Shown here: positions 11,332-56,825 of the stretch, piece by piece | Numbering within the stretch: position 1 is the stretch's first letter | Layout of the letters: each line of letters opens with the position of its first letter | Source of the DNA: Candidatus Dormiibacterota bacterium | Lineage (GTDB): Bacteria; Vulcanimicrobiota; Vulcanimicrobiia; Vulcanimicrobiales; Vulcanimicrobiaceae | Direction: 5' to 3' | Assembly (NCBI GenBank): GCA_035532835.1 | Contig: DATKQG010000059.1 | Location: 6,581-70,580 of the forward strand | Length of the DNA: 64,000 nucleotides | Made by a program: the position numbers and the translations under genes | Notes under the pieces: model-generated | The model's database searches: none | What the model saw: only the letters and a program-made list of their open reading frames with translations | What the model was told of the DNA's origin: nothing

Positions 11332-11337
11332 GGAGCG

Positions 11338-13698: not shown

Positions 13699-14141
13699 AC
13701 CTACAGTGGCAGGGGCACGAGGAGATCGCCGCCCCTAAGGAACGCGTATGGGCGTTCATCAACGATCCGGGCAGCGTCGCCAACTGCGTCCCGGATTTGG
13801 TCGAGGCGAACGTCGTCGATACGCATCACGTCGACGCGGTCGTTAAGGTCGGCGTCGGACCGGTGCGGGGAAACTTCAAGCTCAAGATCGAGCTCGATCC
13901 GCAAGCCGACGGCAGCCGCATGAATCTCAAGATCAGCGGCGGAGGCTTTGGGAGCGTCGTCGATCTGGTCGCGGGGGCCGATGTCAAGGCCGCCGGCGAC
14001 GCGAGCACGGTGCTCGATTGGAGCGGCAGCGCGACGATGCGCGGGCCGATTGCGAGCATCGCCGGGCGCGTGATAGACGCGCAGGCGCAGCGCGTCATCT
14101 CCACGACCTTTGCGAACGTGAAGGCGCGATGCAGTTCCTAG
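13695..14141 (+). CDS. coxG: CoxG-like SRPBCC protein (CO dehydrogenase subunit G)
   Basis: 148 aa, SRPBCC/CoxG-type N-terminus (EEIAAPKERVWAFINDPGSVANCVPDL). 4-nt overlap with coxL. Confidence 0.8.
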   Translation: MNLQWQGHEEIAAPKERVWAFINDPGSVANCVPDLVEANVVDTHHVDAVVKVGVGPVRGNFKLKIELDPQADGSRMNLKISGGGFGSVVDLVAGADVKAAGDASTVLDWSGSATMRGPIASIAGRVIDAQAQRVISTTFANVKARCSS

Positions 14142-16080: not shown

Positions 16081-17281
16081 ACGCTCCGCCGAACTCTCCC
16101 GCAGAGTGCTGGAGTTCTTTACGGTGCTGCGGGAGACGCACGGTTTTTCCGCGGGCCAGCGCGAGGTCCACGATGCGCTGCGCGCGCTCGATCTGCTCGG
16201 CATCACGAATCCCGCGCGCGTGCGGGCGGCGCTGCGTGCCGTCGCGTGCAGTTCGCCCGAGCAGGTTGCGGTGTTCGAAGACGCCTATCGGCACGTCTTC
16301 CTCGCACCCGATGAAGGCGTACCGCAGGCCGCATACGCACCGCGCCATTCGCGCCCCGGAGCGCAGCCCGAACCGTCTCCCGGCCTCCCGGCGCGCGAGC
16401 GCAAAGGCGACCCGCACGATGATGAAGCCGACGGCGACGCAAGCGACGGCCCGTCGCGCGAGCGACGCGTCGCCGACGAAACGCCCGATGCGGCTACGGC
16501 ATGGATGATGTTGCGCGCGCGGTTTAGCCCGATCGCAGCAACTGCGGATCCGCCATCCATCGACCCATGCGGCTTGGAAGAGATGGAGTCGGCAACGCGC
16601 AAACTCGTGCGCAGCGTGCATTTGGGGCGGTCGCGTCGTTGGGCGCCGCAACCGCGCGGGCCGCGCTTCGACCTGCGACGCACGCTCCGCGCGAGCTTGC
16701 AGACCGGCGGCGATCCCCTCACGCTCCATCGGCTTGGCCCGCCGCGCCGCGCTCCGCGCATCGTCTTACTCGTCGACGGCAGCCGTTCGATGGCGGAACA
16801 CGCGACGGTGTTGTTGCAATTCGCCTATGCGCTTGGACGCGCGACGCGGCGCGCGCGTACCTACGTGTTCAGCACCGATCTCCACGACGTCACGCGTATC
16901 CTCGCATCCGTGCGGCCGGGCACCGAACTGCCGAGCCTGGGTGAATCGTGGGGTGGCGGCACGCGGATCGGGGCGAGCTTGGCGAGCTTCGTTCGCGAGC
17001 ACGGCGTACGCGTGCTCGACGAGCAGACGCTCGTGATCGTGGCGAGCGATGGGCTGGACGCGAGCGAGGGAGCGCAACTCGAGCGCGCGATGCGTGAGAT
17101 CCGGCGGCGCTGTGCGGCGGTGGTCTGGCTAAATCCGCACGCGCGCTCGCAAGGCTTCGCTCCGACCGCGGGCGGAATGCGTTCGGCGGGGCCGTTTATC
17201 GATGTGCTCGACGCACTGCATACCGCGCGCGATGTGGAGCGCATGGCCGAGCGCCTATGGCGGACGCGCTTGCATGCGTGA
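16073..17281 (+). CDS. coxE: VWA domain protein (CoxE-like)
   Basis: Start proposed at GTG 16073 (8-nt overlap with coxD). C-terminal VWA-like region with MIDAS-type LLVDGSRSM. Position after the MoxR ATPase matches cox clusters. Confidence 0.8.
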   Translation: MAERSAELSRRVLEFFTVLRETHGFSAGQREVHDALRALDLLGITNPARVRAALRAVACSSPEQVAVFEDAYRHVFLAPDEGVPQAAYAPRHSRPGAQPEPSPGLPARERKGDPHDDEADGDASDGPSRERRVADETPDAATAWMMLRARFSPIAATADPPSIDPCGLEEMESATRKLVRSVHLGRSRRWAPQPRGPRFDLRRTLRASLQTGGDPLTLHRLGPPRRAPRIVLLVDGSRSMAEHATVLLQFAYALGRATRRARTYVFSTDLHDVTRILASVRPGTELPSLGESWGGGTRIGASLASFVREHGVRVLDEQTLVIVASDGLDASEGAQLERAMREIRRRCAAVVWLNPHARSQGFAPTAGGMRSAGPFIDVLDALHTARDVERMAERLWRTRLHA

Positions 17282-39859: not shown

Positions 39860-40696
39860 ATGTCCCATTGGTTTACCTATCCGACAAATATCGATCCTAT
39901 AGCGCTGCACCTCGGCCCCATCAATATCCATTGGTACGGTATCGCGTATTTGGCGGGCTTCGTCTGCGTCTACCTCTGGATGAACCGGCCTGCCGGCCGC
40001 AAGCGTCTGGGGCTGACCTCGGAGCAGATCCAAGACTTTCTCTTTTACGCCCTGATCGGCGTGCTGGTGGGCGGCCGGACGTTCTTCGTCTTCAACGACA
40101 TCATCAGCAAACACGATCTCTCCCTCTACGTCAGTAACCCCATCAACATCATCGCGGTGTGGAATGGCGGTATGGCCTTCCACGGCGGCATGGTAGGTGT
40201 GATCGTGGGCATCTTGCTGTTCATCCGCAAGCATCCGGGGCTGACCTATACGATCCTGGGCGATGAGGTGGTGATGCTGCTGCCGATTGGGATCTTTCTC
40301 ACCCGCATCGTCAACTTCATCAACGACGAACTCTGGGGCGACATCTGCCGCCCCGACCGGCCCTGGTGCCTGCAGTTCCCGACGGCCCCGGACCCGCTGG
40401 CCTACCGGCATCCCGCGCAGATTTACGAAGCGATCCTCGATATCCTGACGCTGCCGATTCTGCTGTACCTCTACAAGCGCAAGCCGAACGACGGTGTGGT
40501 CGCATGGTCGTGGTTTACGATTTACGGCGTTACGCGCAGCGTCGCCGAATTGTGGCGGCACGCGGACTTTCGCTGGATGGGCATCACCGGCGGACAACTC
40601 TATGCCTTGCCGATGATCGTGATCGGGCTGATCATGGTGTTCTACTATTCGCGCCACGGGCAGCATACCGACGAACGGCCGGTCGTCACCAAGTGA
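39860..40696 (+). CDS. lgt: Prolipoprotein diacylglyceryl transferase
   Basis: IHWYGIAYLAGF..., GGRTFFV, GGMAFHGG, RIVNFINDELWG motifs. Confidence 0.92.
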   Translation: MSHWFTYPTNIDPIALHLGPINIHWYGIAYLAGFVCVYLWMNRPAGRKRLGLTSEQIQDFLFYALIGVLVGGRTFFVFNDIISKHDLSLYVSNPINIIAVWNGGMAFHGGMVGVIVGILLFIRKHPGLTYTILGDEVVMLLPIGIFLTRIVNFINDELWGDICRPDRPWCLQFPTAPDPLAYRHPAQIYEAILDILTLPILLYLYKRKPNDGVVAWSWFTIYGVTRSVAELWRHADFRWMGITGGQLYALPMIVIGLIMVFYYSRHGQHTDERPVVTK

Positions 40697-41364
40697 ACGA
40701 CGGCGTCCCGGAGCGGCTGGCCCGGCTTCGCGCCCAGATCGGCGAAGAGGCCCGCGCGGCCGGGCGTTCGCCGCAGGACATCATCCTGGTCGGGGTTAGT
40801 AAAAAGCAGCCGTTAGAGCCGATTCGCGCGGCGATCGAAGCCGGGCTCGGCGACATCGGCGAGAGCTACGTGCAGGAGGCTGCGCTGAAGTTCGGCAGCT
40901 TGCCGCCCGTCCGCAAGCACTATATCGGGCACATACAGACCAACAAGGCCAAGCGCATCGCGGAGCTCTTCGACATCGTCCAGAGCGTCGACCGCGAGGA
41001 CGCGGCTCGCGCCCTCGCGCGGGCTGCGAGCGGGCTCGGAAAGGTCCTGCCCGTGCTGCTCCAACTCAATATCTCGCCGGCCGACCGTTTCGGAGCCCCG
41101 CCCGATGCCGCCGAGCGGCTCGCCGAGGCGATCCGCGCCGAGCCCTCGCTCCGCCTCGACGGCGTGATGGCGATTGGGCCCGATACGCCCGATCGCGCTG
41201 AAATAGCGCGGGCTTTTGCCTTGGCCGCCAAGACGTTGGCACGTGTAGGTGGAAGTACGCTCTCAATTGGAATGTCTGGGGATTGGCGCGAGGCGGTGCG
41301 CGCCGGCTCCACGATGCTCCGTATCGGCACCGGCCTCTTTGGCCGCAGGCAGGAACCGCGATGA
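40693..41364 (+). CDS. yggS: YggS family pyridoxal-phosphate homeostasis protein
   Basis: Start proposed at GTG 40693 (GTGA overlap with the lgt stop). LVGVSKKQP (PLP Lys), HYIGHIQTNK, MSGDW...GSTMLRIGT. Confidence 0.88.
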   Translation: MNDGVPERLARLRAQIGEEARAAGRSPQDIILVGVSKKQPLEPIRAAIEAGLGDIGESYVQEAALKFGSLPPVRKHYIGHIQTNKAKRIAELFDIVQSVDREDAARALARAASGLGKVLPVLLQLNISPADRFGAPPDAAERLAEAIRAEPSLRLDGVMAIGPDTPDRAEIARAFALAAKTLARVGGSTLSIGMSGDWREAVRAGSTMLRIGTGLFGRRQEPR

Positions 41365-41380
41365 AACCCGGGGGTTCACA

Positions 41381-41800
41381 ATGAGCATGTTCGGTAAAAT
41401 AGGGTCGTTTTTTTCGATCCGAGACGAAGAAGAAGAACTCTACGACGACGAGCCGACGCCGAGCGGCCGCGTCGTGCCGTTTTCCAATGCCGGTTCGCGC
41501 CGGGGCGGTACTGAAGTCAGCGTGTACTCGCCGCGCAGTTTCCAAGACGTCGTCGAGATCGCCGATGCGCTACGCAACCGTCAAGTGGTTATCGTCAATT
41601 TGCAGAACGCCGATCGCACGCTGCTCCAGCGCGTGGTCGATTTCACGTCGGGTGTCGCGTATACGATCGACGGTAAAATACAGAAACTCGCCGAGGCCAT
41701 CTACCTCGTCGTGCCGGCCGGCGTCGTCGTGAACGCCGCGGGCCTGCGCGACTCGATGATGACCGACGGCACACTCGATTTCATGGCCAATAGAGGCTAA
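41381..41800 (+). CDS. sepF: Cell division protein SepF
   Basis: Start trimmed to ATG 41381. PRSFQDVVEIADALRNRQVVIVNLQNADRTLLQRVVDFTSGVAYTIDGKIQKLAEAIYLVVP. Confidence 0.88.
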   Translation: MSMFGKIGSFFSIRDEEEELYDDEPTPSGRVVPFSNAGSRRGGTEVSVYSPRSFQDVVEIADALRNRQVVIVNLQNADRTLLQRVVDFTSGVAYTIDGKIQKLAEAIYLVVPAGVVVNAAGLRDSMMTDGTLDFMANRG

Positions 41801-41815
41801 AGGCACAACGCATCG

Positions 41816-42361
41816 ATGGAAAAAATCATGCCGATCGACATCCAGCACAAGAGCTTCAAAAAGGCTCTGCAGGGATACGATCGCACCGAAGTCGATCAAT
41901 TTCTCGACGAGGTCATCGAGACGCTCGAAGACGACGCGCATCAGCGCGCGGCGCTGGAGGCCGAAATCGGCGATCTCAAAGAACGCATCAGCCATTTTAA
42001 AGCGATGGAAGAATCGCTCCAGAATACGCTCGTCCTCGCGCAGCGCACCGCCGACGAGGTGAAGGCTTCGGCGCACAAGGAAGCCGACTTGATTCGCGAA
42101 CAAGCGCGCTTGACCGCCGAACGCGAGATCGCCAGCTATAACGACGCCATCGCGGAAGTCCGCCGCGAGCACCAGCGCACGATCGAACATAACGAAAAAG
42201 CCAAAAGCGAGCTGCGCAGCCTGTTGATGACGCACATGTCGTTGCTGGATAATGCGATGCGCGTGCCGAGCCCGGCCGCAGCTCCCGAACCGAAGCAAGA
42301 AGCGTTGCTTCCGGCCGGCGAACCGCCGAGCGACGACACAAGCCGGATTACGGTTTACTAG
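41816..42361 (+). CDS. divIVA: DivIVA domain-containing protein
   Basis: PIDIQHKSFKKALQGYDRTEVDQFLDEV N-terminal DivIVA motif plus coiled coil. yggS-sepF-divIVA synteny. Confidence 0.85.
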   Translation: MEKIMPIDIQHKSFKKALQGYDRTEVDQFLDEVIETLEDDAHQRAALEAEIGDLKERISHFKAMEESLQNTLVLAQRTADEVKASAHKEADLIREQARLTAEREIASYNDAIAEVRREHQRTIEHNEKAKSELRSLLMTHMSLLDNAMRVPSPAAAPEPKQEALLPAGEPPSDDTSRITVY

Positions 42362-44449: not shown

Positions 44450-45961
44450 TTAAAGCGGTCGCTTGTGCGATAGCGTAAGCGTGACCTTCGTGCTTTGTGC
44501 GGTCGATGCGACTTCGAAGTTGCTGCTGCACGCGCGCATGATCGGGATCCCGCGGCCCCGTTCCGGCCGCGGGGTGAAGGCCTTCCAATGCCCCTTGCTG
44601 GTTATGGTAACGTGCGATGCATCCGGTCCCTTGAGATAGTCGACTTCGAAGCACGCGCCCGCGGCGTCGCTGCCGTGCTCGATAGCGTTGGCGATGGCTT
44701 CGCCCGCCGCGCAGATCGCGTCGTCGGTAAACTCTTGCGAGTGGACGGTGGCGAGGGCGTTACGCAGAGCCTCTCGCGCGATGCCGGCGGACGACGGCAG
44801 GCTGCTATATACCCAGTGGCCGTCAACATGCGACTCCGACGCATTATGGAGCGCGAGCGTCGCGACATCGTCCGTGTTCGCGATGGTTTGAAAGATGGCT
44901 TCGTGCAGGCCGTCTGCGCTCGGGGGCCCGTCACGGGCCAAGCGTTCCAGCGTAACCAAGAGTTCGCGCTCCCCCTCGATGATATCGCGCCTATATTCGA
45001 GCAATCCGTCGGTATAGAGATAGCATGTGGTTCCCGGGGTGAGGGTAACGGTCCATTCGGGCGACGCCGGCGTCATACCGAGGCCGAGCAGCAGACCGCC
45101 CGCGGGCAGCACGAAGGTCTTTCCCGATGGCGATAGCAGAACGGGGTGCGGATGCCCCGCGGAAGCGTACCGCAAGATTTTCGATTGCGGGTCGTAGATG
45201 CCGACGATCGCCGTGGCCATTCCCAATCCTTGGGACGTAACGACCCCGTCGACGTAGTTGAGGAGCGCGGTGGGCGAATTAGTGCCCGGCGCCGCCGAGC
45301 GTATCGCACGCGCGATCTGGCTCATCGAAACCGCCGCCTCGAGCCCGTGGCCGGTGACGTCTCCCACCGACACGCCGATCATGCCGTTTCCGATTTCGAA
45401 CGCGTCGTACCAATCGCCGCCAACCTCGGCTTCGTCGCTCGCGGGCCGATAGGCCGCGTCGAACGAGAGGCCTTCGACGCGCATCAAGCGATCGGGAAGC
45501 AGCGCTTGCTGGAGGCGTTGAGAGACGTGATAGTGATGCGCTAACTGCTGCGATTGCTCGAGCGCCATCGAGATGAGCGTCGTCAATACGCCGGCTACGT
45601 GCGGGCTATCGGACGCGGCGCCGGCATGACGCCGCTCCGAGCCTAATACGAAAGTCCCGATCGCGCGGCCGCCGACGGTGAGCGGTTCGGTTGAGAGCGT
45701 GGATTGGCCGATGACGGCCAGCGGGTCCTCCAAGAGCGCGGAGAGAGCCGCCGTTCGGGCGCCGCCCCATCGAGCTTCGTCGGCGCATGCGAATGCGGCG
45801 GGCGCGGCGCCGTGCCCGTGCAGGTAGATCGAGCAGAAATCGGCGACGGAGCCGGCGCAGAGGTCGCAGATGTTTGCCAGCAGAGCCAACGGCTCTCTGG
45901 GAGTCGATAGAGCGGACAAGTGCCCCTCTCCGAGAGGCCGGTCAAAGAGACCCCTAAGCAT
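44450..45961 (-). CDS. Fused GAF-like / PP2C (SpoIIE) phosphatase / RsbW-like HATPase protein
   Basis: GGDWYDAFEIGNGMIGVSVGDVTGHGLEAAVSMSQ and LYTDGLLE (PP2C/SpoIIE). C-terminal AAGEAIANAIEHGS...RGRGIPIM (anti-sigma kinase-like). N-terminal ~150 aa looks like a divergent GAF domain. Confidence 0.82.
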   Translation of the reverse strand: MLRGLFDRPLGEGHLSALSTPREPLALLANICDLCAGSVADFCSIYLHGHGAAPAAFACADEARWGGARTAALSALLEDPLAVIGQSTLSTEPLTVGGRAIGTFVLGSERRHAGAASDSPHVAGVLTTLISMALEQSQQLAHHYHVSQRLQQALLPDRLMRVEGLSFDAAYRPASDEAEVGGDWYDAFEIGNGMIGVSVGDVTGHGLEAAVSMSQIARAIRSAAPGTNSPTALLNYVDGVVTSQGLGMATAIVGIYDPQSKILRYASAGHPHPVLLSPSGKTFVLPAGGLLLGLGMTPASPEWTVTLTPGTTCYLYTDGLLEYRRDIIEGERELLVTLERLARDGPPSADGLHEAIFQTIANTDDVATLALHNASESHVDGHWVYSSLPSSAGIAREALRNALATVHSQEFTDDAICAAGEAIANAIEHGSDAAGACFEVDYLKGPDASHVTITSKGHWKAFTPRPERGRGIPIMRACSSNFEVASTAQSTKVTLTLSHKRPL

Positions 45962-46059
45962 AGATCCTCGCTCGGCGGTTCAACCCACTAAAGTCTGCCC
46001 CGTTCCGGGGAATCTAAACCTTGGGGCCAGCTCGCCTGCCCGTTTAGGAAATCGGTTCG

Positions 46060-49000
46060 GTGGAGAAGAAGCAGACGTCTTCATCGGCTTTCGGAGGCAC
46101 GATTTGCGTCATGTCTAGCGCTACGGTACCCTCACGCAGCACTAAAAAGCCGCCCAAGGGCGGCCTGCCGCAAACCCATCTACTGGCTGCGTTGCGATCG
46201 TTTAGAGACGGCGACTTTTCGACGCGCCTTCCGAATAGTTTCACCGCGATCGACGGCGAAATCGCGGCGGCGTTCAACGAATGCGTCGAGCGTAACGAGC
46301 GGTTGGCCGAAGAACTCATTCGCATAAGTCACGTTGTCGGGCGCGAAGGCTTGATTGGGAAACGCGCGTCGCTCGCGAGCGCGAAAGGCGCTTGGCGCGG
46401 CAGCCTCGACTCGGTCAACCAACTCATCGACGATCTCGTGTTCCCGATGTCCGAGGCCGGCCGCGTACTCGGGGCGGTTGCCAACGGCGATCTCTCGCAG
46501 CGTATGCCGCTCGAAAACGACGGCCGCGAGCTCAAGGGCGAATTTCTGCGCTCGAGCCGTACGATCAACACGATGGTCGATCGTCTCAATGCCTTCGCGT
46601 CCGAGGTCACGCGCGTCGCGCGCGAGGTCGGCTCCGAAGGAAAGCTGGGCGGGCAGGCCTTGGTGAAAGGCGTCGCGGGAACGTGGAAAGACCTTACCGA
46701 TTCCGTGAACACGATGGCCGGAAATCTCACGTCGCAGGTCCGCAACATCGCCGAAGTCACCACCGCCGTCGCTCACGGCGATCTTTCGAAGAAAATCACG
46801 GTCGAAGCGCGCGGCGAAATCCGTCAGCTCAAGGGCACGATCAATACGATGGTCGATCAGCTCAACGCCTTTGCTTCGGAAGTGACCCGCGTCGCGCGTG
46901 AAGTCGGATCGGAAGGCGCCCTGGGCGGCCAAGCGCAGGTTGCGGGCGTCGCCGGAACGTGGAAGGACCTTACCGACTCCGTCAACACGATGGCCGGAAA
47001 TCTCACGGCGCAGGTTCGTAACATCGCGGAGGTTACCACGGCCGTCGCGCGCGGAGATCTCTCCAAAAAAATCACGGTCGACGTGCGCGGCGAGATTGCC
47101 GAACTCAAAGACACGATCAACACGATGGTCGATCAGCTCAACGGGTTTGCTTCGGAGGTGACGCGCGTCGCGCGCGAAGTCGGTTCGGAAGGCAAACTCG
47201 GAGGCCAGGCCGAGGTTGAAGGCGTCGCGGGAACGTGGAAAGACCTAACCGACTCGGTCAATACGATGGCCGGCAATTTGACGGCACAGGTGCGCAACAT
47301 CGCCGACGTTACGACCGCCGTCGCCCGCGGCGACCTTTCGAAGAAAATTACGGTCGACGTCCGCGGCGAAATTCTGGAACTGAAAATTACCGTGAACACC
47401 ATGGTGGACCAGCTCAACGCCTTCGCCTCGGAGGTGACGCGCGTCGCCCGCGAAGTGGGTTCCGAAGGTAAACTCGGCGGACAAGCCGAGGTTGAAGGCG
47501 TCGCCGGTACTTGGAAAGACTTAACCGATTCGGTCAACACGATGGCCGGTAACTTGACGGCCCAAGTCCGCAACATCGCCGACGTGACTACCGCCGTCGC
47601 TCGCGGCGACCTCTCGAAGAAAATCACCGTCGACGTTCGCGGCGAGATCTTCGAGCTCAAGAACACCATCAATACGATGGTCGATCAGCTCAACGCGTTT
47701 GCGTCGGAAGTGACGCGCGTTGCGCGCGAGGTCGGATCCGAAGGCAAACTCGGCGGACAGGCGGACGTGCGCGGCGTCAGCGGCACCTGGAAGGACCTGA
47801 CGGACTCCGTCAACGTCATGGCCGGTAACCTCACCTCGCAGGTTCGCAACATTGCCGACGTGACGACCGCCGTCGCAAACGGCGACCTCTCGAAAAAGAT
47901 TACCGTGCAGGTGCGCGGCGAGATTCTCGAGCTTAAAGATACGATCAACGTCATGGTCGATCAGCTCAACGCCTTCGCTTCCGAGGTGACGCGCGTCGCG
48001 CGCGAGGTGGGCTCCGAGGGGCGCTTAGGCGGCCAAGCCGAGGTCAAAGGCGTGAGCGGAACGTGGAAAGATCTCACCGACTCGGTGAATTTCATGGCCT
48101 CGAACCTCACCTCGCAAGTGCGCAACATCGCCGACGTGACGACGGCCGTTGCGAACGGCGACCTATCCAAAAAAATCACGGTCGACGTACGCGGCGAAAT
48201 TCTAGAACTCAAAGACACGATCAACACGATGGTCGATCAGCTCAACGCCTTCGCCTCCGAAGTGACGCGCGTCGCGCGCGAGGTGGGCTCCGAGGGGAAC
48301 CTCGGCGGGCAGGCCGACGTGAAGGGCGTGAGCGGAACGTGGAAAGATCTCACCGATTCGGTGAACTTTATGGCATCGAACCTCACCTCGCAAGTGCGTA
48401 ACATCGCCTCGGTAACGACGGCCGTCGCCAACGGGGACCTTTCGAAGAAAATCACCGTCGACGTGCGCGGCGAGATTTCGGAATTAAAAAACACGATCAA
48501 CACGATGGTCGATCAACTCAACGCTTTCGCCTCCGAAGTGACGCGCGTCGCGCGCGAGGTCGGATCCGAGGGCATCCTCGGCGGCCAGGCGCAAGTCGGC
48601 GGCGTGAGCGGCACGTGGAAGGATCTCACCGATTCGGTGAACTTCATGGCGTCGAACCTCACCTCGCAAGTGCGTAACATCGCGAAGGTGACGACCGCGG
48701 TTGCCAACGGAGACCTTTCGAAGAAGATTACGGTCGACGTCCGGGGCGAAATCGCGGAGCTGAAAGATACCATCAACGTCATGGTCGACCAGCTCAATGC
48801 CTTTGCGTCGGAAGTAACGCGCGTGGCGCGCGAGGTGGGTTCCGAGGGTATCCTCGGCGGGCAGGCCCACGTGCAGGGCGTCAGCGGCGTATGGAAAGAC
48901 CTCACCGACAACGTGAACTCGATGGCGGCGAACCTTACCAACCAGGTGCGCGGCATCGCCAAGGTCGTTACCGGCGTCGCCAACGGCGATCTCAAACGTA

Positions 49001-52000
49001 AGCTCACGCTGCAGGCTCGCGGTGAGATCGCGGAATTGGCAGAAACGATCAACGGCATGATCGATACGCTCGCGACCTTCGCCGACCAAGTTACCACGGT
49101 GGCGCGCGAGGTCGGCTTCGAAGGAAAACTGGGCGGCCAGGCGGCCGTACCGAGTGCGGCAGGGTTGTGGCGCGGGCTTACGGACAGCGTCAACCAACTC
49201 GCGGCGCAGCTTACCGACCAGATCCGCGCCATCTCCGAGGTGGCGACCGCCGTGACCAAGGGCGATCTCTCGCGGACGATCGAAGTCGAGGCGCGCGGCG
49301 AAGTCGGCGAACTCACGCGTAACGTCAACGAGATGATTCAGAATCTCCGCGACACGACGCGTAAGAATACCGAGCAAGATTGGTTTAAGAGTAACCTCGC
49401 GCGATTCACCTCGATGCTGCAGGGGCAGCGCGATATCACTGCGGTGACGCAGTTGATCATGTCGGAGATCGTTCCGCTCGTCAACGCGAAGGTCGGCGGC
49501 TTCTATATCAGCGATGTGAGCGGCAACGAGCCGACGTTGCTCCTGATGGCCGGCTACGCGCTGCCTCGCAACCGTCGCTCCAAGCGGGCGATTGCGTTCG
49601 GTGAGGGGCTCGTCGGCCAAGCCGCGGTCGAGCGACAGAGATTGTTGCTCAACGAAGTCCCGGCCGAGTATCTGCAAATGACCTCCGGCATCGGCCAGGC
49701 GGCGCTCTGCTCGGTCGTCGTGTTCCCGATCCTATTTGAGGGCGAGATCAAAGCCGTCATCGAGTTAGGGTCGCTCGAACGCTTCAGCGAAATCCATCTG
49801 TTGTTTTTGGACCAGTTGATGCAATCGATCGGCGTCATGCTCAACACGATTTCCGCATCGATGCGTACCGAGGAGTTGCTCAAGCAGTCGCAATCGCTCA
49901 CCGGCGAACTCCAGAGCCAACAGCTCGAACTCAAACAGACCAACGACGAGTTGGAAGAAAAGGCTCGCCTGTTGCAAGAGCGCAACGCCGAAGTCGAGCG
50001 TAGAACGCGCGAAATCGAAGAGGCCCGTACGGAACTCGAAGGCAAGGCCGAGCAGCTCTCTTTGACCTCGAAGTACAAGTCGCAGTTCTTGGCAAACATG
50101 TCGCACGAACTGCGAACCCCGTTGAATAGCCTGCTCATCCTCTCGAAGCAGCTTGCCGACAACAGCGATGGAAATATGACCGGGCGGCAGGTGGAGTTCG
50201 CGCAGACGATTCGCGCGGCGGGTTCGGATCTACTCACCCTCATCAACGATATTCTCGACCTCTCAAAGATCGAATCGGGAACGACCGCCATCGACTTTCA
50301 AGAAGTCACATTCGACGAAATTGAAAACGAAGTACGGCGAACGTTCGGGCAAATCGCCGCGGATAAGAACCTGCAGTTCGTCGTTCGGCGCGACCGGGAT
50401 CTTTCCGACACGATCGTTACCGATCCCACGCGCCTGCAGCAAGTCCTCAAAAACTTGCTATCGAACGCGTTTAAGTTCACCACGGTGGGTTCGGTGACGC
50501 TTCACATCGGCGTCGATCGCAGCAGTCGCATTCTGGCGGTTCCCGGCCCGGCGATATTTTTCGCGGTTTCGGACACCGGCATCGGGATCTCACCCGACAA
50601 ACACGGCGTCATCTTCGAGGCGTTCCAGCAAGCCGATATGGGAACGTCGCGCAAATTCGGGGGCACGGGGTTGGGCTTGGCCATCAGCCGGGAAATTGCG
50701 GGACTTCTGGGCGGCGAAATAACGGTAGATAGCGCCGCCGATATCGGCAGCACGTTCACGCTCTATCACCCCGCGCAGCGCAACGCGCCGCGAGCGGACA
50801 CGGCGCAGCTCGCGCCGCCGGCCATCGATCGGATCGAAGCCATGCTGGCGAAGGCGCCGTCGGAAGCGGCCAGGCGTTCCGACGAGGCCATCGGGCGTGC
50901 CGACGACCGATACAATATCGACGTGGACGATAAGATCGTCTTGGTGATCGAAGACGATCCGACGTTCGCGGGCCTCTTGGCCGGCTTTGCGACCGAGCGC
51001 GGATTTAGAACCTTGGTGGCGCACTCGGGGCATGAGGCGCTCGAGATGGCGAACAAGTTCATGCCCGATGCGATTACCCTGGATATCGGGCTTGCCGACA
51101 TGGACGGCTGGCAACTGCTCGAGCAGCTCAAATCGTCGGCCGCGACCGCGCATATTCCCGTCCACGTCATCTCGGGCGACGAGCACCAGCAACGCGCGCT
51201 CGAATCCGGCGCGATCGCTCACTTGCAGAAGCCCGTTTCGGAGGAGGCGCTCGTCGATACGTTCGATCGCCTGTTGGGTTTTGCGGACAGTCGCGGCAAG
51301 GACGTTTTGGTGGTCGAAGACGACCTTACGCAGCTCAACGCGATGGTGAACCTCATCGGCACCGGCGAGATGAACGTTACGGCGGTATCGAGCGCCCGAG
51401 CGGCGTTCGAGGCGATCGAGGGCAACACGTTCGACTGCGTCATCGTGGATTTGGGCTTGCCGGATATGTCGGGCGAGAAATTCATCGAGACGTTCCGGGC
51501 CAAGCCGGGGCATGAAACCACGCCGATCATCGTCTACACGGCGCGCGATTTACAGCGGGAAGAAGAGGCGCGCTTGCGCCGCATTTCTTCAGCGGTGGTG
51601 GTAAAAGACGGGCGCGCGCCGGAGCGCTTGCTCGACGAGGTCAATTTCTTTCTCCATCGCGTGGAGGCCGATCTGCCGTCGACACGGCGACCCTCTCGCG
51701 AGGCCGCGCGCGACTCGCTACAGGGGCGGCGGGTACTAATCGTGGACGACGACGCGCGCAATATCTTTGCGCTCGAGGCGGCGTTACGCGCCGAGGGAAT
51801 GGACGTGCTGGCCGCCGAGAGCGGCCGGCAGGGTATCGCCAGCCTCCAAACACGCTCCGACGTCGATATCGTCCTGATGGATATCATGATGCCGGAGATG
51901 GACGGGTTCGAGACCATTCGCAGGATCCGCGCGGACGATCGCATCGCTTCGATCCCGATTATCGCGCTCACAGCGAAGGCGATGAAGGGCGACCGCGAGG

Positions 52001-52092
52001 CGTGCATCGCCGCCGGCGCATCCGAATACGTCAGTAAGCCGGTGGACGTCGATCAGCTTCGCTCGCTATTGCAGCTATGGTTGAGCAAGTAG
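46060..52092 (+). CDS. Soluble poly-HAMP hybrid sensor histidine kinase (HAMP array - GAF - HisKA - HATPase_c - REC - REC - REC)
   Basis: 2010-aa ORF. HAMP-like N-terminus ([10 protein letters not shown]...EIAAAFN). About 11 units of 92 aa with consensus [84 protein letters not shown] domain. H-box SHELRTPLN (His codon 50104-50106). N/G boxes ([25 protein letters not shown]). Three receivers with acceptor Asp codons at 51082, 51448 and 51880. No TM segment seen. Alternative start ATG 46111, 13 nt after GGAGG. Confidence 0.9.
46561..49320 (+). repeat. In-frame tandem array of ten 276-bp units (92-aa HAMP pairs) inside the kinase gene
   Basis: The TINTMVD-encoding motif recurs at 46561, 46837, 47113, 47389, 47665, 47941, 48217, 48493 and 48769. 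The last array unit at 49045 is a diverged copy, and a further diverged copy begins at 49321, just past the array end. All sit in an exact 276-bp phase. A degenerate unit precedes the array from about 46285. Confidence 0.9.
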
Positions 52093-52949
52093 ACGCTCTA
52101 ACGGGGGCTCTCCCGGCGCTGGACCTGCGGCGCGATGAGCTCGCCGATATAGAGCTGCAGTTGCTCATCGACGCCCTGCTGCGCTACGGCGGGTACGATC
52201 TGCGCAGTATGAATCAGGCGATACTGCGCCGGCGTATCGCCGACGTCATGCGCGCGCAGTCGATCGCAACGATTTCAGGCTTGCAGGACCGGCTTCTTCA
52301 CGACGAACGGACGCTTGCCTCGTTTTTGGTGATGATGTCCGGGGGCGCGTCGCAGCTCTTCCACGATCCGCCGTTTTTGAAAGCGTTCGCGTTGCACGTC
52401 GTCCCGTTGCTGCAAACCTACTCGTTCATCCGCATCTGGGTACCCGGAAGCGGTATCGGCGCAAACGCCTTCTCGCTGGCCGCGATTTTGGACGAAGCCG
52501 GAATTCTCGATCGTTCGGTCATTTACGCGACGACCCTCAACGACGTTGCCGCTTCGGTGGCCAAGGCCGGGGTTTATTCGCACGCCTCCGAAGCCGACCT
52601 TACCGCATCGATGCGGCAAGCCGGGCTCGTATCTCCGGCGTCGCGTTTCTTCGAGACGACAAAGCTGCAGGCGTTTCCGGTGGATCGGTTACGGCAAAGC
52701 GTGATGTTCGCGCGGCATAGCCCGGCCGAAGACGGCCCGATCAACGAGTTTCACGCAATCGTTGCGCGCGGCATTTTTCCGTCGCTCAACGGCGCCATCC
52801 AGTACCGTCTCCATCGGCTGGCGTACGACAGCCTTTTGCACTTGGGATTTTTGTGCCTGGGTCAACGCGAATCGCTGGCCGGTACCGTGCACGAGCGGGC
52901 ATTCCGTAACGTGGTTCCCGGCCAACCCATCTATCGAAAGATGCGCTAA
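52077..52949 (+). CDS. CheR-like methyltransferase-fold protein with divergent SAM-binding motifs
   Basis: CheR_N-like helix bundle ([26 protein letters not shown]), [10 protein letters not shown] (cf. FFRdp), [18 protein letters not shown] (cf. iWsagCStGEEpYSlA), ATTLND (cf. ATDid), LGQRESL (cf. lG.sEsl). ATG overlaps the kinase 3' end by 16 nt. Confidence 0.75.
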
Positions 52950-52954
52950 CGCCG

Positions 52955-53311
52955 CTACGCCGCCGCGGCGTGCGAAACTTGAAGCACCCTCTCGAGCTGC
53001 GTGATGTGGAACACGCGCGCGATCGTTCCCGATGGCGGAATAATCACGCGTAACATGCCGCTCGAGCGTTCGTGCAGCCGCACGAGCGCCTTGAGGCCGC
53101 TGGAATCGATGTAGCCGCAACGCGTCAGATCGATCGTCAGGGCTTGCCCGTCGATCGCGACCTGCTCGATGTATTCTACAAAATGCTTGCTGGTGGCGAT
53201 GTCGATGTCGCAACTGGCGAACACGATGCGCTCGTTTTCCGCACACCGGTGTGAAAAATGGTCGATGAGGCCTGGGGTTAAGGTGGGATCGTATGCCATG
53301 GGTTTCTCCAA
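52955..53311 (-). CDS. STAS domain anti-sigma-factor antagonist (SpoIIAA/RsbV-like)
   Basis: 118 aa. LTIDLTRCGYIDSSGLKALVRL carries the DSSG phospho-serine motif. C-terminal helix ARVFHITQLERVL. Confidence 0.8.
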   Translation of the reverse strand: MEKPMAYDPTLTPGLIDHFSHRCAENERIVFASCDIDIATSKHFVEYIEQVAIDGQALTIDLTRCGYIDSSGLKALVRLHERSSGMLRVIIPPSGTIARVFHITQLERVLQVSHAAAA

Positions 53312-53374: not shown

Positions 53375-53833
53375 CTACTCGCCGGCGCTGCTTGGCTGGG
53401 GGTAGTGCCGCGTGTTATGCCCTGGCATTGACGGTTGGCGAGACTCATCCAAAAAGGAACGCATCGCTGCGACCAACGGGCCTTGAACGTCGCCGAGCGG
53501 ATGATTGCGCAGGAGTGTAGCCGGGCTGGAATCGCCGAGGCGTGGATTGCTGGAATGGAACCAGGCGCGGATTACTTCCGCGTCGTGCGACTGCGCGATC
53601 GTGCTCGCCAGCTGGAGGGCAAAGCGAAGAACGTGCGGCCGTTGGGGGCGGCGGTCGATCATCCACTGCTGGACCGCGCGGGTCTCCGTGACGCCTGCGA
53701 TCTCGGCGACCATCGAAAGCCCGAGCAATCCTACCAGTTCGCGGACCGCTCGGCCGATGGGTAGGCCGATCGCGTGGCTGTGTGCTTGGTACTCGAATTG
53801 GGCCGATCGGAATGCCCCTTGCTCGTCGATCAT
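53375..53833 (-). CDS. XRE-like HTH / DUF2384-like (MbcA/ParS antitoxin-type) protein
   Basis: Start set to ATG 53833 to avoid overlap with the upstream lipoprotein gene. HTH-like LSMVAEIAGVTETRAVQQWM. C-terminal AWFHSSNPRLGDSSPATLLRNHPLGDVQGPLVAAMRSF resembles the DUF2384 toxin-binding domain. Assignment is from memory of the motif. Confidence 0.5.
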   Translation of the reverse strand: MIDEQGAFRSAQFEYQAHSHAIGLPIGRAVRELVGLLGLSMVAEIAGVTETRAVQQWMIDRRPQRPHVLRFALQLASTIAQSHDAEVIRAWFHSSNPRLGDSSPATLLRNHPLGDVQGPLVAAMRSFLDESRQPSMPGHNTRHYPQPSSAGE

Positions 53834-53889
53834 GCCATACGATATACCACCGAAGAACCCGGGATAAACGCCACCGTGTAGCGCTGCGT

Positions 53890-54255
53890 TCAGACCTTCA
53901 CGGAGCGCGAAGATTCGAGATTTCCGCGAAAATCGATGAAGCGTACCGTGAGTGCGGCGTGCTGGTGGGGATGCGTTTGGAGCCACGCCGAACGCCAAGC
54001 GCGTAGCGTTGCAGCCTTAAGCGCGTTCTCGTCATCCTCGCTGATCGAGTAGAGCTGGTTGAGATCGACGGAGACGTCGACCGTGGTCCCGTGGAAGTCG
54101 AACCCGACGATGACCCCGCTATAGGTTTTTTGAAGGCGTGCAAGCTGCGTCCGTTCGCTCGCATGACGAACTTGCTGCGGCGACGGCGGTGCCGAACAAG
54201 CCGCGACGCTCAAGAGCACCGCGAACGCGAAAGATGCCGCCCGGCTAAGTCGCAT
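53890..54255 (-). CDS. Hypothetical lipoprotein
   Basis: Start trimmed to ATG 54255. MRLSRAASFAFAVLLSVAACSAPP has a lipobox (VAAC). No family recognised. Confidence 0.55.
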   Translation of the reverse strand: MRLSRAASFAFAVLLSVAACSAPPSPQQVRHASERTQLARLQKTYSGVIVGFDFHGTTVDVSVDLNQLYSISEDDENALKAATLRAWRSAWLQTHPHQHAALTVRFIDFRGNLESSRSVKV

Positions 54256-54348
54256 GGCCTGGGGCTTCGGCCACCGTGGCCGGCTACCATCTTCGACGTG
54301 CAACGCGGCGTACACGAATCGGACATATCGGCGGCTTAGCATGCCTTC

Positions 54349-54951
54349 ATGGATGGAATTGCATGGGCACAGAGCGCGATGGTCGCGGCACGGACGCGGC
54401 TGGACATTGCTACCGGTAATCTCGCCAACGTTTCAACGAATGGCTTTGCCCGTCTGGTAGCGCGCGGTTCGCTGACGGCCCGCGGGGTCGTGATTCGATC
54501 GCGCGCGCAACTCGGGCACGGCGGGTTACGCCCGACCGGACGCGCGTACGATCTCGCGATCGTCGGCGATGGAAACTTTCGCGTGCGTGAACTCTCGGGG
54601 CGAATCGTACGCACGCGCAACGGTGCATTCGAGCGCGACGTTCGCGGCCATCTCCACGACGATGCCGGGCGGGTGCTGCTCGGTACGAACGGAGCACTGC
54701 GCGTCCCGGATGGCGCGACTTTCGATGCGGTCGGGCGACTGATGCTGCACGGAACGCCAATCGGGCGCGTCCCGCTTCCGCGCGGGAGCAGCCTTCGAGC
54801 GGGCTTTATCGAGACGGCAAACGTGAACGCGATCGGCGAGATGGTCGACGTGTTGGCAGCGGAGCGTTCGTACGAAAGCGCCGAAAAAGTGATGAGCGCG
54901 ATTGACGGCACGCGGCAGAAAGCCGCGAACGACGTCGCGAGGCTCAAATAA
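54349..54951 (+). CDS. flgF: Flagellar basal-body rod protein (FlgF-like)
   Basis: N-terminal rod motif DIATGNLANVSTNGF and C-terminal ERSYESAEKVMSAIDGT (rod/hook C-terminal heptad motif). 200 aa. Confidence 0.8.
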   Translation: MDGIAWAQSAMVAARTRLDIATGNLANVSTNGFARLVARGSLTARGVVIRSRAQLGHGGLRPTGRAYDLAIVGDGNFRVRELSGRIVRTRNGAFERDVRGHLHDDAGRVLLGTNGALRVPDGATFDAVGRLMLHGTPIGRVPLPRGSSLRAGFIETANVNAIGEMVDVLAAERSYESAEKVMSAIDGTRQKAANDVARLK

Positions 54952-55679
54952 TGGATCGCGCGCTCTACGCCGCCGCGACCGGAATGGCCGCTCAACAACG
55001 CAATCTCGACGTCGTTTCCGATAACCTCGCAAATGCCGACGTCGCCGGATTCAAGGGCTCGGTCGCGACGTTCGAAGTGTTGGCCGCGCCCGGCGAGCGC
55101 GGCGTGGGAACCGCCGTTACGGGCCAGCACGCCATCTTCACGCAGGGCAAGCTCATGAAGAGTCCGGGCGCGTTCGATCTCGCCATCGACGGGCCGGGAT
55201 TCTTCACCGTCGCCGACGGCAAGGGGCGTAAGGGGTACACGCGCGATGGCGCGTTTTCGCGCGCACCGGATGGTTCGCTCCGCAACGCGCAGGGCTGGCG
55301 GCTCGACGGCATTCGCATTCCGCAGGATGCGCTCGGCGCGCGGGTGGAGAGCGACGGGCGCCTGATCGTCACCACGGCCGGCGGCAAAACAACGATGGGG
55401 CGCGTTCGCCTTGCGGAGTTTGCCGCGCCCGAGGCGCTGCAGAGCGTTGGGGGCACGCTCTTCGCCGCTACGAGTGCGTCGGGTCGTGCGCGCACGATCG
55501 AGGCGGGCGGCCCCAACGCCCCGCAGATTCGATTCGGTATGCTCGAGCAGTCCAACGTCTCGATCGTGGAATCGATGATGGAGATCATGGCCGCGCAACG
55601 AGCGTACGAAGCGAACGCTAAAGGCGTCCAAGCGGCCGACGAAATGCTGCGAATCGCCAACAACTTGCAACGTGGATAA
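54951..55679 (+). CDS. flgG: Flagellar distal rod protein FlgG
   Basis: MDRALYAAATGMAAQQRNLDVVSDNLANADVAGFK ... IMAAQRAYEANAKGVQAADEMLRIANNL. Confidence 0.88.
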   Translation: MDRALYAAATGMAAQQRNLDVVSDNLANADVAGFKGSVATFEVLAAPGERGVGTAVTGQHAIFTQGKLMKSPGAFDLAIDGPGFFTVADGKGRKGYTRDGAFSRAPDGSLRNAQGWRLDGIRIPQDALGARVESDGRLIVTTAGGKTTMGRVRLAEFAAPEALQSVGGTLFAATSASGRARTIEAGGPNAPQIRFGMLEQSNVSIVESMMEIMAAQRAYEANAKGVQAADEMLRIANNLQRG

Positions 55680-55869
55680 CGCGGCAGCCGGCGCGGTAGG
55701 ACGCGCGTGCGAATCGTTGCTTCTCGCGCAAATGCTGGCGCCGATGACGAAGTCGTGGGGCGAATTCGGTTCCCTCGGCACGCAGACCGTCGCCGACGCG
55801 ATTGCAGGCCGCGATACCGGCGGCTTTGCCGCCGCAATCGCTCGCGCATTGGAAGCGCGCCATGACTGA
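55672..55869 (+). CDS. Small rod-binding (FlgJ N-terminal-like) protein, tentative
   Basis: 65 aa. CESLLLAQMLAPM resembles the rod-binding motif fE..fl.qmlk.M. Overlaps the flgG stop and the fliA start. Confidence 0.5.
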   Translation: MDNAAAGAVGRACESLLLAQMLAPMTKSWGEFGSLGTQTVADAIAGRDTGGFAAAIARALEARHD

Positions 55870-56536
55870 AAGCGAACGCGAAGCGCAGATCCGGCGGCTA
55901 CTGCCGCTCGTACGCGCGATCGCGCGCCGAGTGCAGCGCGTGGTCCCTACCATGGATTTGGACGATCTGATCGGCGACGGCAGCATCGGGTTGGTCCGCG
56001 CGGTCGATGCCTTCGATCCCGAGCGCGGAGCCTCGCTCGAGCACTATGCCAAGCATTTGATTGCAGGAACGATGCTCAACGGCATTCGACGCATGGATCC
56101 GGTCCCGGAACGCGTGCGCCGCGCCGTGCGCGACGGCGAAAATGCACGATATCGTCAGGCGGTGGAGGCCGGTACGATGCCGGCGCCCGACGCGTTCGAA
56201 CGCACGCGCCCGGCGCTTCGCCGGGCGGCCATGGTGGCGTATCGCGTGCAGCCGCTCTCGCTCGATTGCGCGTTGCCCGAGCGCGAGCGGCTCGCATGCG
56301 ACTGGAGCCGCGACCCGGCGAACATCGTCGCCGAACGCAGTAGCGCGCACGAATTGCGCATCCATCTACGCGGCCTTCCGCCACGCCATCAAACCCTTCT
56401 TGCGCTGCATTATTTTGCGGACGGACCGCTGGCGAGAATAGGCTCGCGTATGGGCATATCCGCACAGCGCGCCTCGCAGTTGCACGTCGCGGCGATCGCG
56501 CGCCTGCGCAAGCGGTATCATGCTCCGTCGCGTTGA
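55862..56536 (+). CDS. fliA: Flagellar sigma factor (sigma-28, FliA/WhiG family)
   Basis: Start trimmed to ATG 55862. Region 2 (DLDDLIGDGSIGLVRAVDAFDPERGASLEHYAKHLIAGTMLNGIRR) and region 4 HTH (LHYFADGPLARIGSRMGISAQRASQLHVAAIARLR). Flagellar context. Confidence 0.85.
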   Translation: MTESEREAQIRRLLPLVRAIARRVQRVVPTMDLDDLIGDGSIGLVRAVDAFDPERGASLEHYAKHLIAGTMLNGIRRMDPVPERVRRAVRDGENARYRQAVEAGTMPAPDAFERTRPALRRAAMVAYRVQPLSLDCALPERERLACDWSRDPANIVAERSSAHELRIHLRGLPPRHQTLLALHYFADGPLARIGSRMGISAQRASQLHVAAIARLRKRYHAPSR

Positions 56537-56825
56537 TATCGAGGAGCGCCCGCCGTCGCTCGCGGCGGCTCTGGGCCTAGCGCAGAGCGAGCCGATCGTC
56601 GCCGCCGCGAGCGAAGCCGAGCACGACACCGCGCTGCTGCCGCACGATCATCCGCCGTGGGTGAAAGACGCGCTGAGCGTCTCGCAGCGCGCCCGCTCGC
56701 TTTTCGCCACGCTGCGCCCGGCCGTCATGCGGGTGCTCACGTTCTGGGACCATCGCATTCGCTCGGCCACCATCGCCGGCCAGCGCATCGGCATCGATCC
56801 CAGCGGCAGCTACCGCACGTGGTGA
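56520..56825 (+). CDS. Hypothetical protein
   Basis: 101-aa ORF with strong third-position GC bias. Overlaps the fliA 3' end by 17 nt, and its stop overlaps the next start (ATGA-type). No family recognised. Confidence 0.5.
   Translation: MLRRVDIEERPPSLAAALGLAQSEPIVAAASEAEHDTALLPHDHPPWVKDALSVSQRARSLFATLRPAVMRVLTFWDHRIRSATIAGQRIGIDPSGSYRTW

Follow-up and report, generated by a model that had tools for sequence, protein, structure and literature searches.

A poly-HAMP kinase, a CheR-fold protein and a GAF-like/PP2C/RsbW-like protein kept together as a gene trio across Eremiobacterota

How might a soluble hybrid histidine kinase built on a long HAMP array be joined to the proteins encoded beside it? 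We consider this question for a signalling locus in a 64,000-nucleotide stretch of contig DATKQG010000059.1 (assembly GCA_035532835.1; the whole stretch is called the window below, and coordinates without a locus number refer to it), from a member of the Eremiobacterota, a phylum also called Vulcanimicrobiota, in a clade near Baltobacteraceae/Aquilonibacter. The locus encodes a poly-HAMP kinase, a CheR-fold protein and a GAF-like/PP2C/RsbW-like protein, and several described systems can be set beside it. Soluble kinases in which a poly-HAMP array precedes a GAF domain, a DHp/CA core and one or more receivers form a family, and the structures 9TRK and 9TRJ are assigned to AskA (PMC13446029). 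AskA (MXAN_0712) of Myxococcus xanthus has three receivers (PMC7643160); its described partners are two paralogous kinases, AskB and AskC, together with MrpC/FruA, and no CheR-like or PP2C/RsbW partner is reported for it (PMC13446029, PMC7643160). In Bacillus cereus, RsbK has the order CHASE3-HAMP-GAF-S-helix-HK-REC, with an inhibitory receiver and no Hpt; the rsbM gene lies in the rsbK operon and encodes a CheR-like enzyme that methylates the RsbK S-helix with no cognate CheB, and 127 RsbK-like kinases are known across 10 phyla (PMC4574943). The Streptomyces hybrid kinase OsaA is cytosolic, contains more than 10 HAMP domains and lacks an Hpt (PMC9739842); its neighbour OsaC is an anti-sigma regulator that binds SigB through an N-terminal kinase domain (PMC9739842, PMC10117811). 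Rv1364c of Mycobacterium tuberculosis, a PAS-PP2C-GHKL-STAS protein, binds SigF and both adds phosphate to and removes it from its own STAS domain (PMC7693655, PMC10950880). Finally, HsbR is a response regulator with a PP2C-kinase fusion; its partner HsbA binds FlgM when unphosphorylated, and the system acts on RpoS and FlgM/FliA (PMC6482189).

Each striking feature of the Eremiobacterota locus has a described precedent; the three together as one fixed unit were not found described. The initial annotation of this DNA had offered a four-gene island (the trio and a STAS gene) as a candidate for an undescribed system, and in that form the claim finds only partial support, since RsbK-RsbM-RsbY, AskA/OsaA and Rv1364c are already described. 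Two circumstances that it had named as counting against the idea apply in part: the fourth gene does not generally accompany the other three, and closely similar architectures have been characterized. Its account of the individual genes was sound. The open reading frame (ORF) listing and profile searches place all four genes where it had put them, and they agree on a minus-strand GAF-like/PP2C/RsbW-like fusion (Pfam SpoIIE and HATPase_c_2, with fold matches to GAF only), a 2010-residue cytoplasmic kinase with a HAMP array, one GAF domain, three receivers and no Hpt (Pfam scan; no membrane helix), a CheR-like ORF that overlaps the kinase stop by 16 nucleotides (nt), and a convergent STAS protein with an intact DSSG site (Pfam). 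The parts of the island are as follows (aa, amino acids; bp, base pairs).

44450..45961, minus strand: GAF-like/PP2C (SpoIIE)/RsbW-like (HATPase_c_2) fusion protein, 503 aa, divergent from the kinase (Pfam)
45512..45904, minus strand: GAF-like domain of that protein, about aa 20-150 (AlphaFold and Foldseek)
44849..45385, minus strand: its PP2C/SpoIIE phosphatase domain, aa 193-371 (Pfam E 8e-37)
44474..44800, minus strand: its RsbW-like GHKL domain (HATPase_c_2), aa 388-496 (Pfam E 2e-10)
45962..46059: PP2C/kinase intergenic region, divergent, 98 bp, presumed from the sequence to be a shared promoter region
46060..52092, plus strand: AskA-type soluble poly-HAMP hybrid histidine kinase, 2010 aa (Pfam; 9TRK homology)
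46192..49374, plus strand: poly-HAMP array of 11 di-HAMP units of 92 aa, about 21-22 HAMP domains (GDL[SK] spacing, Pfam, 9TRK alignment)
46561..48989, plus strand: 276-bp tandem DNA repeat, 8.8 copies with 81% matches, encoding di-HAMP units (Tandem Repeats Finder)
49429..49842, plus strand: GAF domain, aa 1124-1261 (GAF_2, E 4.5e-17)
49843..50064, plus strand: E/Q-rich coiled-coil linker between GAF and DHp (S-helix region), about aa 1262-1335 (59-sequence alignment)
50077..50778, plus strand: HisKA (H-box SHELRTPLN) and HATPase_c core, aa 1340-1573 (Pfam E 9.8e-19 and 6.3e-25)
50923..52071, plus strand: three receivers, about aa 1622-1736, 1746-1866 and 1892-2004 (Response_reg in three stretches, E 3.4e-65; NCBIfam)
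52077..52092, plus strand: 16-nt overlap of the kinase and CheR-like genes, the CheR-like ATG lying within the last kinase codons (ATGGTTGAGCAAGTAG)
52077..52949, plus strand: CheR-fold protein, 290 aa, RsbM-like by position (Pfam, AlphaFold, residue tables)
52955..53311, minus strand (probable ATG at 53299): single-domain STAS protein with a DSSG phospho-site (Pfam E 2.5e-11; TIGR00377)

Three of these genes are held together across the phylum. A profile of the CheR-like protein, run against one genome per species, gave 62 loci, all but two of them from Eremiobacterota. The divergent PP2C/RsbW gene, the poly-HAMP kinase gene and the CheR-like gene occur in the same arrangement in 38 of the 38 Eremiobacterota loci with enough upstream flank, and the trio holds from 94% down to 41% CheR identity. 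The flanks vary between clades: no flanking family occurs in more than 11 of the 33 full loci, and the most frequent one is an antisense artefact. On these counts the idea of a fourth conserved gene beside the trio was considered and rejected. The four-gene island of the initial annotation thus survives as a kinase/CheR-like/PP2C trio, while its STAS member is found only in a narrow clade. Because both the STAS gene and the nearby flagellar genes are limited to particular clades, the conserved unit comprises three genes. The domain E-values and the conservation of this core in relatives are far beyond chance. Our best reading, to which we give an even chance, is that the trio is a cytoplasmic, stress-type, three-protein signalling module of Eremiobacterota.

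The kinase belongs with AskA. Pfam reports 10-11 HAMP/HAMP_2 stretches, GAF_2, HisKA, HATPase_c and three Response_reg domains in it, with neither an Hpt domain nor a CHASE3 match; no membrane helix is predicted, the maximum Kyte-Doolittle 19-mer being 1.79. The connector GDL[SK] occurs 11 times, at a spacing of 97 aa once and then of 92 aa nine times, and early in the array there are a 5-residue insertion and a Pro, matching the description of AskA-like kinases (PMC13446029). The array is homologous to the AskA 6-HAMP structure (PDB 9TRK, E 1.7e-89; 9TRJ, E 1.8e-42), with a near-identical repeat consensus. Both AskA and the window kinase consist of an N-terminal HAMP, about ten di-HAMP repeats, GAF, DHp/CA and three receivers, both are soluble, and their arrays share the early Pro and the linker insertion. 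The di-HAMP array, the homology to AskA, the GAF-DHp/CA-receiver order and the solubility thus all place the kinase in the AskA type; the difference lies in the partners, which for AskA are other kinases and transcription factors. All three receivers retain the DD pair, the acceptor Asp, Thr/Ser and Lys, and the H-box is intact, as judged from the translation.

RsbK-RsbM-RsbY offers a second likeness, namely the order HAMP-GAF-S-helix-HisKA-HATPase-REC, a CheR-like gene directly downstream, no CheB, and an output of PP2C and STAS/RsbW type. However, RsbK sits in the membrane and has CHASE3, a single HAMP and a single receiver, whereas the window kinase is a soluble protein that carries about 21-22 HAMPs and three receivers. 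Across Eremiobacterota the coiled coil that joins GAF to DHp hardly varies, even in loci where identity elsewhere in the module falls to 41-60%, and this near-invariance suggests a binding surface. In the 59-sequence alignment, every Eremiobacterota kinase lacks a 35-aa E/Q-rich heptad segment (with EEQAAS) that is present in the linkers of actinobacterial homologues.

The CheR-like protein is the most unusual member of the trio. Its gene begins with an ATG at 52077, within the end of the kinase gene, which terminates with TAG at 52090-52092; the junction reads ATGGTTGA(A/G)CAAGTAG, and almost every Eremiobacterota locus keeps the 16-nt overlap. The CheR-like ATG is not preceded by a visible Shine-Dalgarno sequence. 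The overlap fits translational coupling of the two genes, as the initial annotation had supposed. The Pfam matches are weak (CheR_N and CheR, 50 and 31 bits), and no NCBIfam RsbM model matches the protein. The fold is clear: the AlphaFold model has a predicted local distance difference test (pLDDT) score of 91, and its top 10 PDB fold matches are all CheR, with a template modelling (TM) score of 0.80 to 5FTW. Four signature residues, Arg, Asp, Asn and Tyr (RDNY), are present in Bacillus subtilis CheR (5FTW), in 20 of 20 actinobacterial homologues and in 61 of the family representatives that were aligned. In the window they read HTGS (Arg to His, Asp to Thr, Asn to Gly, Tyr to Ser), and residue tables show all four lost throughout the clade with at least 52% CheR identity. 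Structural work on Salmonella CheR reportedly proposed the Arg and Tyr of this set (Arg98/Tyr235) as catalytic residues. In class I methyltransferases, the acidic residue after beta-2 binds the ribose of S-adenosylmethionine (SAM); in the window's clade this beta-2 position is Phe, Cys, Ser or Thr. The gene is nonetheless under strong purifying selection, the ratio of nonsynonymous to synonymous substitution rates (dN/dS) being 0.06-0.09. The protein has the fold of a chemotaxis CheR; it lacks the signature residues, and it has no methyl-accepting chemotaxis protein (MCP), CheA, CheW or CheB for company among the window ORFs scanned (most ORFs, chosen by size and by GC content at third codon positions, GC3). 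Hpt domains were likewise not found among these ORFs. A tblastn search of the Eremiobacterota loci detected no CheB-like sequence. RsbM has methyltransferase activity, whereas the CheR-like protein of the window's clade is probably a non-catalytic partner of the kinase, to judge from its residues.

Among more distant CheR-like representatives (P0361-P0510, E 1e-30 or better), many from outside Eremiobacterota also depart from RDNY, for example with DDNL, SENQ or GDDS, so degenerate CheR-fold proteins may be more widespread.

What might the ancestral arrangement have looked like? The closest homologues found outside Eremiobacterota are three loci (L063, L067 and L068) in metagenome-assembled genomes (MAGs) of soil Actinobacteria, where identity to the window proteins is 49-61% for the kinase, compared over its GAF, catalytic core and receivers, and 35-38% for the CheR-like protein. 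The order there is a 2341-aa poly-HAMP kinase, CheR, a 192-aa CheB, a REC-PAS-GAF-PAS kinase and a single receiver (L068, 2972-14284). These operons share with the window the order of kinase then CheR, but they differ from it in having the full RDNY set, a stand-alone CheB catalytic domain and a second kinase, and in having no PP2C/RsbW gene and no overlap. Their linker is 35 residues (five heptads) longer, SEELQAQQEELQQTNKELEEQAAS..., and includes a chemoreceptor-like EEQAAS site. What is new in the Eremiobacterota locus is the apparent combination of a CheR-like protein without the four signature residues, no CheB and a missing 35-residue heptad segment, yet strong purifying selection. As a hypothesis, a CheR/CheB adaptation pair may have been converted here into a single non-catalytic CheR-fold partner.

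The actinobacterial type of CheR is very abundant in soil metagenomes, with at least 8000 matches; identity to the L063 query is 78-96% for the 120 listed. The homologue search for it returned close soil-MAG relatives only, with no named RsbM among the matches listed. Another locus, L066 from Streptomyces plumbidurans (27% identity), was set aside as an unrelated canonical CheB-CheR-PAS locus.

The third member of the trio combines three domains. Its first 150 or so residues have no Pfam match, and hhalign of this region against GAF and REC profiles derived from the kinase gave no significant match. The AlphaFold model of the region has a pLDDT of 76; its top Foldseek matches in the PDB are all GAF domains, the best being 3hcy (E 4.6e-3), and five homologues have precomputed Pfam GAF matches. 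The label 'GAF-like' is fair because the fold matches only GAF and because of these five homologues, and it is reasonable to read the region as GAF-like and not as a receiver, a point that the search with the modelled fold settles weakly. The PP2C metal-binding motifs GGDWYD, GDVTGHG, YTDGL and DDVAT are intact in the window and invariant in alignments. The RsbW-like domain keeps its N-box (GEAIANAIEHG). Its G1-box Asp is replaced by Ser in the window (TSKGHW) and by Ser or Asn across the window's clade; the Asp is retained in the deep Eremiobacterota clade and in Rv1364c. This Asp is lost only in the clade that also lacks the CheR residues, so the two losses run in parallel.

Among described proteins, Rv1364c can be aligned with it directly: residues 162-502 match residues 33-388 of the Rv1364c chain in PDB 3KE6 from end to end (E 4e-26). 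Both have a PP2C domain fused to a GHKL/RsbW-type domain, a sensor in front and a G-x-W-K/R lid motif. However, Rv1364c has a PAS sensor, a G1-box Asp and a C-terminal STAS domain, whereas the window protein has a GAF-like sensor and a Ser at the G1 box and terminates after the GHKL domain with no fused STAS, a separate, lineage-specific gene encoding the STAS protein. A motif G-[HR]-W-[KR] of the RsbW-like domain is common to Rv1364c; in RsbW and SpoIIAB the same position reads G-x-G. RsbY differs in being a REC-PP2C protein, as opposed to a PP2C with a GAF-like N-terminus fused to an RsbW-like domain. HsbR is said to carry an N-terminal receiver fed by HptB, whereas the phosphatase here has no receiver and no Hpt lies nearby. 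In composition, the HsbR-HsbA and CrsR-CrsA pairs of Pseudomonas and Shewanella nevertheless resemble the window, with PP2C and an RsbW-like kinase in one protein and a single-domain STAS partner (PMC6482189). By the described composition, OsaA/OsaC (SCO5748/SCO5747) likewise place a cytosolic kinase with more than 10 HAMPs beside an RsbW-like anti-sigma protein. OsaC reportedly also carries PAS, GAF and PP2C domains, as Fernandez Martinez described in 2009. The OsaC kinase domain is N-terminal (PMC10117811), in contrast to the C-terminal RsbW-like domain here. Neither the window nor the related loci encode an equivalent of OsaB (SCO5749, a receiver with a coiled coil). Accounts of osaABC make no mention of a CheR-like gene, and they credit OsaA with a receiver domain without stating how many, as against three here (PMC9739842, PMC10117811).

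We propose the following scheme for the three-protein module. The rod of about 21-22 HAMPs, together with the GAF domain, would set the activity of the HisKA/HATPase core. The three intact receivers would most likely serve as internal phospho-acceptors or as inhibitory domains, like the receiver of RsbK, since no Hpt lies nearby. The CheR-fold partner, coupled to the kinase through the overlap, would in the window's clade modulate the kinase without catalysis, by binding the E/Q-rich coiled coil that lies between GAF and DHp. Output would probably pass through the GAF-PP2C-RsbW protein, which would control whether one or more STAS proteins are phosphorylated and, by way of its RsbW-like domain, bind or free a partner, for instance a sigma factor. 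In the lineage of the window, the adjacent DSSG-bearing STAS protein is the obvious candidate substrate; in other lineages the substrate would be encoded elsewhere. The signal could be osmotic or another physical stress, by analogy with OsaA and with fungal group III kinases. Functional coupling of kinase and PP2C protein is suggested by the invariant divergent gene order and, by analogy, by the independent pairing of OsaA with OsaC. With no receiver on the phosphatase and no Hpt found, any link between the two would run through protein contact or shared regulation. A more specific version of this scheme, which we put forward tentatively and regard as possible rather than probable, is that a pseudo-methyltransferase binds the kinase coiled coil, that the kinase is wired by contact to a receiver-less GAF-PP2C-RsbW protein, and that this arrangement derives from an ancestral CheR/CheB adaptation system of which actinobacterial relatives preserve a living form.

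Several observations weigh against the three-protein module or its parts. There is no obvious phosphotransfer route from kinase to phosphatase, neither Pfam nor the fold search having found a receiver in the PP2C protein, and the link rests on the conserved divergent gene order. Since the window's clade has another residue in place of the G1-box Asp, the RsbW-like domain there is of doubtful kinase activity. The module has no linked anti-sigma/sigma pair, and a STAS gene stands beside it only in the window and in loci with 93-96% CheR identity: L005 (93%) and L069-L074, the last being six contigs from the metagenome scan, all with the same arrangement. As to the CheR-like protein, the deep Eremiobacterota clade (41-48% CheR identity) retains Arg and Asp, although only these; the glycine-rich G-x-G-x-G loop at motif I is well retained in the window's clade, and loss of residues would in any case be no proof of lost SAM binding. 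The roles of the four signature positions are those we take to apply here from structural work on Salmonella CheR. Finally, RsbK, RsbM, OsaA and OsaC are likened to the window proteins by their described organization.

These last points bear on the question of whether the CheR-like protein is still an enzyme. It could be an active methyltransferase with an altered SAM pocket that methylates the linker as RsbM methylates RsbK, and the kept motif I, the Arg and Asp of the deep clade and the almost invariant E/Q-rich linker would all suit such an enzyme, as would the fact that RsbM works without a cognate CheB (PMC4574943). We nevertheless think this rather unlikely for the window's clade, where all four signature residues are replaced and where Phe, Cys, Ser or Thr at the beta-2 position should, as class I methyltransferases go, be unable to bond the SAM ribose; in addition, all of the CheB-bearing actinobacterial homologues keep the full residue set.

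The main challenge to the module as a whole is that the kinase and the CheR-like protein form a self-contained unit of AskA/OsaA type, acting through unlinked partners as AskA does through AskB, AskC and MrpC, and that the PP2C/RsbW protein is an independent regulator. AskA signals through complexes with hybrid kinases and transcription factors, its third receiver contacting AskC (PMC7643160); the actinobacterial kinase loci lack a PP2C gene, and the PP2C protein, which lacks a receiver, has its own GAF-like input. The PP2C/RsbW gene, however, stands divergent from the kinase gene in all 38 informative loci even though the other neighbours change, and a poly-HAMP kinase and a neighbouring RsbW-like anti-sigma protein have been paired independently in Streptomyces (OsaA/OsaC). 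On this evidence we consider two separate units unlikely.

Where, then, do the STAS gene and the flagellar genes downstream of it belong? The STAS protein (motif YIDSSGL) is encoded convergently with the CheR-like gene. A jackhmmer search for STAS proteins in the 10-kb flanks of all loci matched only the window's close relative L005, and the next relatives of the protein are 34% identical and lie in unrelated contexts. DSSG is retained in all of the STAS proteins beside the module, and their dN/dS of 0.12-0.26 indicates purifying selection. The STAS gene is a recent, lineage-specific neighbour, outside the conserved core. In the RsbK system rsbV, rsbW and sigB are linked, whereas here the STAS gene is clade-limited, the RsbW-like domain is fused and the nearby sigma factor is FliA/WhiG-like; no further partner-switching genes were found among the other window ORFs scanned. 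Downstream of the STAS gene come two ORFs without a family, a small lipoprotein gene, and the following genes.

54349-54951, plus strand: FlgF-like rod gene (profile search)
54951-55679, plus strand: FlgG-like rod gene (profile search), followed by a short ORF and then the sigma gene
55802-56536, plus strand: FliA/WhiG-like sigma factor, the nearest to the module (108 bits, below the curated cut-off of 189.6)

The initial annotation had named this last gene fliA and placed it about 2.5 kb away as the nearest sigma gene; FliA/WhiG is indeed its best match. Its presence, with flgF and flgG, 1-2.5 kb downstream raises the idea of a flagellar or chemotaxis regulator, in which the CheR-like protein would methylate chemoreceptors and the PP2C/RsbW and STAS proteins would control FliA through a FlgM-like anti-sigma factor, much as HsbR and HsbA do. 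HsbA binding to FlgM and the PP2C-kinase fusion of HsbR (PMC6482189) lend this some colour, as do the motility phenotypes of B. cereus RsbK/RsbM mutants (PMC12848376). However, flagellar genes and fliA neighbour the module only in the window and in one sub-clade with 66-74% CheR identity, and the interval between the CheR-like gene and flgF differs in content among relatives of about 70% identity. The CheR-like protein lacks the signature residues, the PP2C protein is without a receiver, neither Hpt nor FlgM was detected, and no chemotaxis partner turned up in the scan of the window ORFs for MCP, CheA, CheW and CheB or in the tblastn search of the loci for CheB; the initial annotation had also seen none in the island. 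None was present among the called genes of L001 and L003 either, no systematic search for MCP, CheA and CheW having covered all loci. A flagellar or chemotaxis role is improbable because the flagellar genes adjoin the module in one sub-clade only, and these genes were rejected as members of the module. That all four genes of the island are a chance juxtaposition is highly implausible: the STAS and flagellar genes are indeed recent or clade-limited neighbours, but the other three genes stay together phylum-wide while the flanks change, and their overlap junction is conserved.

The module is not a new kind of system, and its importance is in that respect moderate. If the more specific version of the scheme, with a pseudo-methyltransferase and wiring by contact, is true, a two-component kinase would here be joined to partner switching in a way not described before. 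Little is understood of poly-HAMP kinases in bacteria, functional data coming mainly from fungal group III kinases, which are fungicide targets, and from Myxococcus AskA; a kinase fixed to two accessory proteins across an uncultured phylum therefore provides concrete partners to test. The homologues moreover present three natural states: a full CheR with CheB and a longer linker in Actinobacteria, a CheR-like protein with two of the four residues lost in the deep Eremiobacterota, and one with all four lost in the clade of the window. This series could show methylation-based adaptation turning into binding-based regulation, and it could show the effect of a CheR-like partner on this class of kinase, RsbK/RsbM included.

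The surroundings of the trio add a number of smaller observations. No site was found in the 98-bp intergenic region 45962..46059 by a sigma-70 consensus scan, and scans for promoter and terminator consensus gave counts at or below shuffle expectation. Upstream of the module lie housekeeping genes: tgt, a pseudouridine synthase, lspA, lgt, a YggS-like gene, sepF, divIVA, isocitrate/isopropylmalate dehydrogenase and fabH. The YggS-like gene, sepF and divIVA stand in a row (40366-42361, plus strand), a cell-division set typical of Gram-positive and cyanobacterial lineages and here found in Eremiobacterota. On the other side, the 207-aa ORF at 53375-53998 (minus strand), between the STAS and lipoprotein genes, has a weak match to the C-terminal part of Xre/MbcA/ParS antitoxins (19 bits, E 0.0011); it is about 90% conserved only in the narrow STAS-bearing clade, so the two genes may have arrived together. 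The small predicted lipoprotein (53890-54342, minus strand) belongs to no Pfam family; its signal ends ...AAC and is followed by ...YPDVV.GFDF.G..DVSVD.N..., and it is kept beside the rod genes in relatives of about 70% identity (L007, 11548-11913; L011, 11180-11539; L013, 4760-5122). Overlapping the stop of the sigma gene is a 101-aa ORF (56520-56825, plus strand) with no family match, which could be an unrecognized anti-sigma factor or another flagellar regulator. In the deep clade, a protein of 75-77 aa is encoded directly 3' of the CheR-like gene (L041, 10919-11149; L050, 10915-11145; L053, 11143-11376; L056, 10880-11113; L058, 10937-11164); it has one hydrophobic segment and a zinc-ribbon-like C-x-x-C ... 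C-x-x-C end (KTYACAQCGRRG...VVWYC.RCAH). Finally, a cluster at 10840-17281 (plus strand) encodes a [2Fe-2S] subunit and a molybdopterin-binding large subunit of the aldehyde oxidase/xanthine dehydrogenase/CO dehydrogenase type; the FAD-binding medium subunit was not seen among the ORFs scanned, and the cluster also includes an XdhC with a YHS domain and a CoxE-like VWA protein.

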